A DNA stretch of 64,000 nt from Scenedesmus sp. PABB004 (taxonomy: Eukaryota): contig JABVCE010000009.1 in the NCBI GenBank assembly GCA_014905635.1, positions 372,001 through 436,000 on the forward strand, written 5' to 3'. The notes below the pieces were generated by a model. It was not told the DNA's origin, did not search any database, and saw only the letters and a program-made list of their open reading frames with translations. This document shows positions 2,346 to 4,068 of this stretch, piece by piece. Both the position numbers and the translations under genes were made by a program. The stretch's first letter is position 1, and every line of letters begins with the position of its first letter.

Positions 2346-4068
2346 CGCGGCGCAGCCTCCCGGGCTCGGCGCGGGCTCGCTCGCCCGGCAGCAGGATGTA
2401 CTGCTCCGCAGCCTGCCCCGCGCGCTCGCAGACTCCGCCTTCAAGCTGCGCTTCGACGGCGTGAGCGTTGCGTCGCTCGCGTCCCTAGAGGACCACCCGC
2501 TGGCCCGCGTGCTGAGCAGCGGCGGCACCGACGGCTGCCTGATTCTGGCGACCGCGGTCGACCGGCTGAGCCGGCGGCCGGGGGTGCTCGCGGGGCTCGT
2601 TGAGCTCGCCCGCCAGCACGGCGCCGCCATCGCCGTCTACATGCAGACGCCGCGGCAGCTCGCGGCGCTGCGGCCGGGCTGCTACATCGCCGACGCGCTC
2701 GGCGAGGCCGCGGCCGCCGCGCTGGCCGGCGCGCCCGCCGCGCTGGCGCTGCAGCAGGCGGCCGACCGCGCGGCGCGGCTGCTGCAGCCCGCGGCGGCGG
2801 CGAGCATGTCCGCGCTGCTGCCCGTGTCGCTCACGAGCTGCGCGCCGGCCGTGCTGGAGGCGTGCTTTTGCGAGGAGCGCCAGGCGGCCCTGTTTGTGCG
2901 GGGCCGCAGCGTCAGCTTCTCGGGCGCGTGTGACGGGCGGCTCCTCGGCGCCGTCGCGGCAGGCCGGAGTGCGTACGGCGTGCAGGCGGGCAGCGTGCCC
3001 GCCGGTGCGCGCGGCGCCTCGTCCGCGGGCATGCAGGCCGGGCTGGTCGCCGCGGCGGCGGCGGCGGCGGCGGCGGCGCTGGGGCTGCAGCTCGGCGAGC
3101 CCGGCAGCCCGCGCCCGTCGCGCTGCTGCCCAGCGGCCTCGCAGGCCACAAGGCGTGGGAGTGCCGGGCCTGCAGCTGCGGCGACGGCGCGCACGACATG
3201 GGCTGCCTGTGCGACTGCCGCAAGTGCCGGCACGCGCGCGAGTCGCTGTGCGCCTGCCCCGCCGCGGCCGGCGGCGGCGGCGCGTGCGCATGCCCGGCGG
3301 CGTGCTGCTGCACGTGCAGCTGCTGCCACCGCCACGCCGGCGGCGCCGGCGCCGGCGCCGCGCCGCCGCCGGCATCGGCGCCGCGCCCCCCGCTGCCGCA
3401 CCCGCCGCCACGCCCGCCGCTACGCGGCGCGGCGGCGGCGTCTGCGTGTGCGGCGCGGCCATTCGTCGCGCCGGGCAGCAGTTTTGCAGCACTGCGTGCT
3501 ACGCGCAGAACTGCGCCGAGCCCGAGCGCTGCCGCCACGGCGCCGCCTGCCGGGAGGCCGCCCCGGCGCCCGGCGGTGACGGGCCCGCGCTGGGCGCGGT
3601 GATCCTGCCGGGCTCGGTGCACGGCAAGTCGTGCCCGGCCTGCGGCCGGGCCGCCAAGAACACCGCGCAGACGGAGGCGCGGGCGCGCAAGCGCAGCGCC
3701 GCCGCGGCGGCGGGCGTGGCGGGCGCGGCGGCGGGCGCGGCGGCGGGCGCGGCGGCGGGCGCGGCGGCGGGCGCGGCGGCGGCGGCGGGGGGCCAAGCGG
3801 CAGCGCCCCGGGGCTGGCGGGCGGCGGCCCGGAGCCGCCGGCCAAGCGCCCGCGCGGGCCCGCCGCCGCCTGGACGCTGGGGCGGCTGCTCGCGCTCGTG
3901 CGCGCGCGCGGCGCCGGCTTCCCCGGCGCCAACGGCGCGGGCGGCAGGTGGGGCAAGGGCGAGGCGCTGCTCAGCGGCCTCAGCTCGCAGCAGCTCGGCG
4001 GCGAGTGGGGCCGCGTCGCGCGCTGCGTCGCGGCGGCGCCGCGCGCCGCGGACGGCCGCGGCGTCGCG
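1329..4068. repeat. Large diverged inverted repeat, arms ~1329-2345 and ~2936-4068
   Basis: The reverse complement of the left arm aligns with the right arm at both DNA and protein level, for example VILPGSVHGKACPACGRAAKN versus VILPGSVHGKSCPACGRAAKN. Confidence 0.92.
2371..4068 (+). pseudogene. Serine recombinase (resolvase/invertase-like) domain fused to a Cys-rich region; frameshifted and truncated
   Basis: SLARQQ..FDGVS..HPLARVL..DGCLILATAVDRLSRR..LVELARQHGAAIAV (2371-2640; DRLSR at 2560-2574). Homology to the intact minus-strand copy continues through successive frames (shifts near 3110, 3370 and 3800) and ends at the U6 fragment. No YxRxS catalytic motif is visible upstream. Confidence 0.68.

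Follow-up and report, generated by a model that had tools for sequence, protein, structure and literature searches.

A decayed copy of a probable serine recombinase gene with Cys-rich modules in nuclear DNA of Scenedesmus sp. PABB004

We analysed a stretch of 64,000 nucleotides from Scenedesmus sp. PABB004 (contig JABVCE010000009.1, positions 372,001 to 436,000), here called the window, in which an initial annotation made from the letters alone had proposed a resolvase/invertase-like serine recombinase domain. We consider it highly probable that the plus strand from position 2347 to about 4068 is a decayed, near full-length copy of a gene of a small, unnamed family of serine recombinases, and an inactive relic. 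The copy is a truncated relic of a family member, not a functional member; because the nucleophile has been lost, the reading frames are broken and the 3′ end has been replaced, it cannot recombine DNA. The parts of the locus are given below in window coordinates, where GC3 is the G+C fraction at third codon positions and snRNA is small nuclear RNA.

2347..2705, plus strand: remnant of the probable serine recombinase catalytic domain (motifs, frame, Pfam, alignment to relatives)
2706..2940, plus strand: middle region, ALG ... LLPVSLTSC ... EERQAALFVRGRSVSF (alignment A2, tblastn of relatives, coding signature)
2936..4068, plus strand: right arm of an inverted duplication, the 3′ half of the gene copy (arm alignment, GC3 phase)
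1329..2346, minus strand: left arm, in which part of the gene's 3′ half is duplicated in inverted orientation (arm alignment, open frame)
4070..4113, plus strand: fragment of the 3′ half of U6 snRNA (98% identity to 939–982)
889..989, plus strand: U6 spliceosomal RNA gene, full length (Rfam RF00026)

The recombinase motifs stand in a single plus-strand frame from 2347, and in the order that had been proposed for them (SLxRQ, FDGVS, R/H-P-L, DRLSR). They read SLARQ at 2377–2391, FDGVS at 2452–2466, HPL at 2494–2502 and DRLSR at 2560–2574, and LVELARQHGAAIAV follows DRLSR in the same frame. The domain remnant spans helix A through the strand behind helix D, and the middle region after it corresponds by homology to the helical middle of the family described below. 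The frame is clearly coding-like, with the usual order of G+C content for coding DNA: 300-nucleotide windows within 2401–3000 gave 0.95–0.99 for GC3, 0.53–0.65 at second positions (GC2) and 0.78–0.84 at first positions (GC1). An antisense reading of the same interval would give an atypical GC1 < GC2. The earliest in-frame ATG is at 2641, which is 3′ of DRLSR.

Unique sequence begins at 2347, immediately past the edge of the left arm. A tblastn search matched residues 20–60 of the family member P0016 to 2341–2466, which places the start of the window copy at about P0016 residue 20. Its 5′ end lacks about 20 codons, and with them strand 1, the start codon and both the Arg and the Ser of the R-x-S motif. 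We found no match to the pattern [hydrophobic]x3-R-[TVIL]-S in any plus frame of 1–2400, and three occurrences across the six frames of the window; tblastn with the N-terminal pieces of relatives gave no significant matches anywhere in the window. The initial annotation had described the catalytic YxRxS as missing at the point where an inverted copy begins, and had called the copy probably inactive. Both statements hold: the cut falls at 2346/2347, no R-x-S-like string occurs in the plus frames of 1–2400, and the copy has no start codon, no R-x-S and three frame breaks. The end point of 3120 first given for the domain coincides with the first of these breaks, at about 3105–3108.

The 254-amino-acid translation of 2347–3108 was used as a phmmer query against 1,835,955,588 representative proteins. 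The search returned 14 matches with an expectation value (E) of 0.001 or less, four of them at E ≤ 1e-10. Thirteen were true relatives (P0001–P0013; E 8.9e-15 to 2.4e-4, 34–42% identity), with colinear matches that cover query residues ~26 to ~250, and the alignment of the window copy to them is colinear over the recombinase, middle and Cys-rich parts. The fourteenth match, P0014, was rejected as an unrelated repeat protein. Longer N-termini were supplied by the cluster members P0015, P0016 and P0019.

The full family layout is seen in P0016 (467 amino acids), which consists of a catalytic domain, a helical middle and two Cys-rich modules. Its N-terminus is M-V-L-F-V-R-T-S (residues 1–8), with R-x-S at residues 6–8. 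In the family an insert of 20–35 residues separates R-x-S from S-L-x-R-Q, after which come N/D-G-x-S, H-P-L and D-R-L-S/T-R. The middle region follows the pattern A-L-G ... P-V-x-L ... E-x-x-A-A-x-F-A-x-G-R-x-A-S-F. The first Cys-rich module reads W-x-C-x2-C-x-C ... C-x-C-x-C-x2-C-R-x-A-x-E ... C-x-C ... C-x-C-x-C-x2-C-H, and the second C-x2-C ... C-x3-C-Y ... R-C ... C ... P-G-x-V-x-G ... C-x2-C. Some members, both window copies included, end in a basic Trp-rich tail. Its W...W...W spacing is a possible Myb/SANT-like resemblance for which Pfam gave no support: 3790–4074 matched no family, and 1194–1700 gave one match at chance level. P0013 and P0019 are about 1000 amino acids long and carry two tandem recombinase-like domains, each with R-x-S and D-R-x-x-R, preceded by ~460 further residues; the predicted protein has no Cys-rich modules. 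These two proteins differ by one residue and are counted as one independent case. P0005 equals P0002 over its first 183 residues and then runs out of frame, being a frameshifted gene copy on another contig.

Four methods gave evidence that this family consists of serine recombinases. The Pfam Resolvase profile, PF00239, matched 9 of 12 relatives at E ≤ 1, always over about positions 44–103 of its 145. Two proteins scored above the curated cut-off of 23.3 bits, namely P0013 (32.0 bits, in two stretches) and P0019 (31.9 bits). Below the cut-off were eight further relatives of the 12, P0015 (E 0.0041) and P0016 (E 0.088). A profile built from alignment A2 was then compared with 177,635 distinct PDB sequences. 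It gave two matches at E ≤ 10, both of them serine recombinases: 9iu2, titled Bxb1, a large serine recombinase (E 0.053; 122 positions from S-x-x-R-Q past D-R-L-T-R), and gamma-delta resolvase (E 2.8). The D-R-x-x-R of the family aligned with D-R-L-T-R in the former and D-R-L-G-R in the latter. When an AlphaFold model of one member was compared with 48,161 chains, the two best structural matches were serine recombinases; the match list was mostly filled by one domain, and the C-terminal parts were hardly compared.

The fourth method was profile-to-profile alignment. The reference alignment, A5, held six small recombinases, PinE of E. coli K-12 and five plasmid proteins named 'recombinase family'; L003 was left out, having a stop codon in its match region. 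Against this reference, hhalign gave the 14-row, domain-only family alignment a probability of 57% (P 1e-4, score 33.8, 81 columns). It paired F-V-R-T-S with Y-V-R-V-S of PinE, followed by S-L-T-R-Q, G-x-S, H-P-L with R-P-G-L, and D-R-x-x-R. None of 100 column-shuffled templates reached 33.8 (11.9 ± 2.5, maximum 23.9), and the reversed template scored 11.9.

The catalytic residues are largely shared across the family. In D-R-x-x-R, whose residues we take to be D67, R68 and R71 in resolvase numbering, the first and the second Arg were each present in 14/14 domain copies and the Asp in 13/14, and a Thr stood three residues before that Asp in 13/14. The Ser of G-x-S was found in 12/12 copies. R-x-S was present in all three copies that reach far enough toward the N-terminus, which are P0016 and domains 1 and 2 of P0013. 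At the level of the family, then, the identification made from the sequence stands, as do its expectations that paralogues keep D-R-x-x-R and that the fuller ones carry the catalytic Ser. PF00239 was confirmed for P0013 and P0019 but not for the piece from the window, and the predicted fold was supported by the top structural matches of the member model but not by Foldseek.

Several results weigh against reading the locus as a serine recombinase relic. The 118-amino-acid piece from 2347–2700 scored 13.6 bits with PF00239 (E 0.071), under the cut-off, although this was the only Pfam family that it matched at E ≤ 10 (residues 63–98). The 250- and 459-amino-acid window translations gave no Pfam Resolvase match, and phmmer of the window peptide against PDB returned only an unrelated match at E 9.8. 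The ESM Atlas placed the peptide among AAA_30/helicase clusters (score 0.93, 162 shared features), a recognition under the tool's bar. For the family, a Foldseek search with the P0016 model had no match reaching E ≤ 0.001 in either PDB or BFVD, and hhalign of the whole-protein family alignment against the six recombinases gave a probability of 12% (E 0.0024). Two positions that canonical enzymes conserve are substituted: the Arg of R-P-x-L is His in 10/13 copies, the window's included, and Arg in one, and the acidic position before G-x-S is Asn in six, Glu in two and Asp in one (the window) of 12 copies. Both the canonical Arg and the acidic residue are conserved in A5. Judged from these His and Asn residues, the activity of even intact members is not assured.

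The origin of the relatives belongs with these contrary points. Ten of the 13 relative clusters were looked up, and each of them traces to a metagenome or run assembly (JGI/IMG, ENA, Logan); the ten are labelled 'hypothetical protein' or carry no label, and have no NCBI or UniRef source. The A4 pattern search for the relatives' DNA confirmed none of 470 stretches from viral contigs and none of 599 from metagenome contigs, and the pattern search for the DNA of P0016 confirmed none of 55.

Other searches added little on either side. The single-sequence AlphaFold model of the window peptide had a predicted local distance difference test (pLDDT) of 42.7 and was left out of the fold search. A word-index protein search with the window peptide found no match among the 8000 candidates sharing most words, a blank that says little; among the 8000 best-sharing candidates, A3 found only P0008 and P0009, and residues 1–230 of P0009 found only P0009 itself. 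NCBIfam gave rows at chance level only (XisF at E 0.14 for P0006, hisD for P0016). Part of the second Cys-rich module in the P0016 model matched a MYND zinc finger, the second-ranked Foldseek result in PDB (probability 0.21), which we regard as a hint only.

We next describe how the gene copy was broken. The inverted arms, 1329–2346 and 2936–4068, are 77% identical by blastn and have 85% mean column identity in a MAFFT alignment. Because the arms are so diverged, the palindrome is old and real and not an assembly fold-back. Between them lies a unique spacer of 590 bp (2347–2935) that holds the domain remnant and the middle region. In the right arm are the first Cys-rich module (3156–3329), the second (3443–3661) and the Trp-rich tail (3871–4068). 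Compared with the left arm it shows three frame changes, namely a 1-nucleotide difference near 3105 and two 5-nucleotide differences, with the first break at ~3105–3108 and the others at about 3380–3400 and 3800–3840; the GC3 phase along the arm moves through coordinate-mod-3 classes 0, 2 and 1 and then back to 0. The right copy lacks the last ~45 codons present in the left copy, and in their place stands the 44-nucleotide U6 fragment at 4070–4113, directly joined to the arm's end. Because this fragment is oriented like the U6 gene and is not mirrored, it lies outside the inverted duplication. A third partial copy at 205–244 (40 nucleotides, 80% identical to 3998–4037) was dropped as too weak in this base composition.

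The left arm reads on the opposite strand. Its open frame (1194–2339, minus strand, 381 codons) is uninterrupted over both Cys-rich modules and the Trp-rich tail, with the first module at 1950–2123 (minus strand), and includes a stretch conserved in the family (A-A-G-R-H-S-Y-S-V-L-A-G-S ...). The arm lacks a recombinase domain, and its homologous part contains no start codon. Since stop codons are rare at 79% G+C with GC3 near 0.97, a frame that stays open counts for little as evidence of function. Differences between the arms per site were 0.175, 0.19 and 0.146 at codon positions 1, 2 and 3, and the ratio of nonsynonymous to synonymous rates (dN/dS, Nei-Gojobori) was 1.14 over 343 codons. The divergence thus looks neutral, with similar rates at all codon positions. 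Against this, GC3 near saturation depresses dS and so inflates dN/dS, and none of the 16 Cys in the first Cys-rich module has been lost from either arm; together these two points may leave room for some past constraint. We concluded that both pieces are relics.

Three other explanations of the locus were weighed. The strongest of them, which we nonetheless judge improbable, is that the locus is still a working gene, whose start and nucleophile come from an upstream exon that went unrecognised or lies beyond the window, and whose frame breaks are assembly indels in DNA of 79% G+C. Such a gene would fit the very strong coding signature, with GC3 up to 0.99, and the absence of an in-frame stop over 1816–3579. 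The first frame break falls at a C run (CCCC in the left arm, CCC in the right), the AG near 2352 is a possible splice acceptor, and the first Cys-rich module has kept every Cys in both arms. An upstream exon is opposed, however, by the lack of any R-x-S-like string in the plus frames of 1–2400, by the failure of the relatives' N-terminal pieces to find a significant tblastn match, and by the DNA just upstream, which is the inverted arm with its conserved reading on the opposite strand. Assembly error would not readily account for the breaks either, since two of the three frame changes are 5-nucleotide differences and not homopolymer slips; the 3′ end is replaced by the U6 fragment, and the arms' dN/dS of 1.14 also speaks against a working gene.

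The other two explanations dispute the identity of the domain and not its state. One holds that an Ala/Arg/Leu-rich frame in DNA of 79% G+C mimics the motifs by chance and belongs to an unrelated fold. This is largely refuted already, and we give it very little weight: Pfam, the PDB profile, structure and hhalign agree on the family and on the aligned residues, the shuffled controls never reached the real hhalign score, and two members lie above Pfam's curated cut-off. Least probable of all, and already disfavoured, is a degenerate fragment of a P-loop, superfamily 1 helicase (AAA_30, RecD/Pif1-like, as in Helitron-type elements), in which DRLSR would be Walker B and MQTPRQL the next helicase motif. 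The ESM Atlas does list TraI and AAA_30/AAA_19 clusters at 0.89–0.93, its ten best hits with a family all share a family or clan, and by eye the spacing fits (hydrophobic strand, D-x-x-S, helix, second strand). Yet the Atlas recognition of 2209 is below the tool's bar and 162 shared features is a low count, and an Atlas query with residues 1–215 of P0016 gave no usable hit. Neither the window pieces nor P0015, P0016 and P0019 matched AAA_30, AAA_19 or PIF1 at E ≤ 10, and the 12 relatives did not at E ≤ 1; no helicase was among the structural matches covering the domain, and P0016 opens directly with V-R-T-S.

We therefore return to a decayed serine recombinase gene copy as the best explanation of 2347 to ~4068. 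Where its first ~20 codons should be stands the gene's own 3′ half, duplicated in inverted orientation, and the U6 fragment takes the place of its last ~45. This pseudogene relic has acquired the base composition of the host and lies between ordinary nuclear genes. By homology, an intact member would be a resolvase- or integrase-like enzyme whose C-terminal modules hold its dimers to the crossover sites, with synapsis bringing the dimers into a tetramer. Attack on the DNA backbone by the N-terminal Ser would give covalent 5′-phosphoserine links and staggered double-strand breaks, and the strands would be rejoined after one half of the tetramer had rotated.

As to what the family is, we lean moderately toward a putative recombinase of an integrating or transposing element. 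We do so because a rearranged pseudogene lies amid housekeeping genes, P0005 is frameshifted, P0013 has tandem domains, and the family is small and patchy. A domesticated host gene is a less likely candidate, and a virus-derived gene is less likely again. It is possible, and we put it forward tentatively, that the family is an undescribed eukaryotic nuclear lineage of resolvase-type recombinases with two Cys-rich, putatively zinc-binding modules, and that it would serve a new class of eukaryotic mobile element, separate from IS607/Fanzor2, as its integrase or transposase.

The window is eukaryotic nuclear DNA, as shown by its U6 snRNA gene and by the split genes that encode ORC2, COG3, Vps41 and S-adenosylhomocysteine hydrolase. 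The U6 gene (889–989, plus strand; Rfam RF00026, 96.3 bits, E 1.2e-23) was the sole Rfam match at gathering thresholds in the 64 kb, with the stop codon that ends the left-arm frame ~200 bp away. The other intron-split genes are those for a Clp protease, mitochondrial carriers, aminomethyltransferase, IFRD and glycosyl hydrolase 31, and the base composition of the window is 79.1% G+C. Short tandem repeats (translated 'THARTHAR...' and 'HTHTHT...') were seen at ~47,900–48,300 and ~50,490, in or beside the split glycosyl hydrolase 31 gene. Two coding-like segments matched no Pfam family at E ≤ 0.001: 5312–5911 (plus strand), which by eye has an F-box-like start, LPEPLVLHVLSFLP, and repeated 'AA..GQLAVL.WAR' units, and 61840–63999 (minus strand), the longest such segment of the window, with 720 amino acids and a poly-Gln run.

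The dead copy has its worth in anchoring an anonymous metagenomic family to a nuclear genome, by way of U6 and the intron-split housekeeping genes around it. If full-length members are active, DDE, tyrosine-recombinase/HUH and reverse-transcriptase elements would be joined by a fourth enzymatic means of moving DNA, or of rearranging it in a programmed way, in a eukaryotic lineage. Such members would then also offer serine integrases that occur in nature and are already suited to the eukaryotic nucleus.

Among known systems, the initial annotation had looked to IS607-like elements, a comparison that does not fit the domain order. In IS607 TnpA the DNA-binding domain is described as N-terminal with the catalytic domain behind it, in the parts of the two sources that we consulted (PMC4058570, PMC6188088). 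The family has the reverse order, with the catalytic motif beginning at residue 6 of P0016. Because the members that are long enough carry R-x-S at the N-terminus, the predicted order is resolvase-like and not IS607-like. The observation that no TnpB/Fanzor companion lies nearby was borne out: 0 of 45 coding-like segments of the 64 kb window, taken by a strong GC3 signature only, matched a TnpB-type Pfam family at E ≤ 0.001. This too is unlike IS607-type elements. The serine recombinases reported from eukaryotes and giant viruses are IS607-type TnpA from a few protists and giant viruses, as far as the consulted portion of Bao and Jurka (2013, PMC3627910) goes, and the consulted portion of PMC6431247 treats bacterial elements only. 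A full-text literature search yielded no paper on a resolvase-order serine recombinase family from a eukaryotic nuclear genome. Resolvase-type serine recombinases are rare in such genomes.

Large serine recombinases (Bxb1, TP901-1, phiC31 and Tn4451-type transposases) resemble the family in having the catalytic domain first. They differ in that none of 15 relatives matched a Pfam recombinase-domain or zinc-ribbon family, Resolvase alone reaching E 1e-3; the family's modules hold many more Cys than a single zinc ribbon, and no coiled-coil was identified. The margins between large and small recombinases were too small for placing the family.

Small serine recombinases, too, share features of layout with the family. 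As in Tn3/gamma-delta resolvases and Hin/Gin/Pin invertases, the catalytic domain stands at the extreme N-terminus, with R-x-S within the first ten residues of P0016. The motifs follow the same order (S-L-x-x-Q, x-G-x-S, x-P-x-L, D-R-L-x-R), the putative DNA-binding parts are C-terminal, and the family aligns by profile to PinE and five plasmid recombinases and matches gamma-delta resolvase in both sequence and structure. In contrast to these enzymes, the proteins are 2–3 times longer, have the 20–35 residue insert between R-x-S and S-L-x-R-Q, and carry His for the Arg of R-P-x-L and often Asn before G-x-S. Two Cys-rich modules stand where a helix-turn-helix would, with no helix-turn-helix Pfam family returned, and the window copy sits in a eukaryotic nuclear genome. 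The chemistry itself is known; what sets this variant apart is the nuclear setting, the insert and the two substitutions within the catalytic domain, and a C-terminal part made up of Cys-rich modules.

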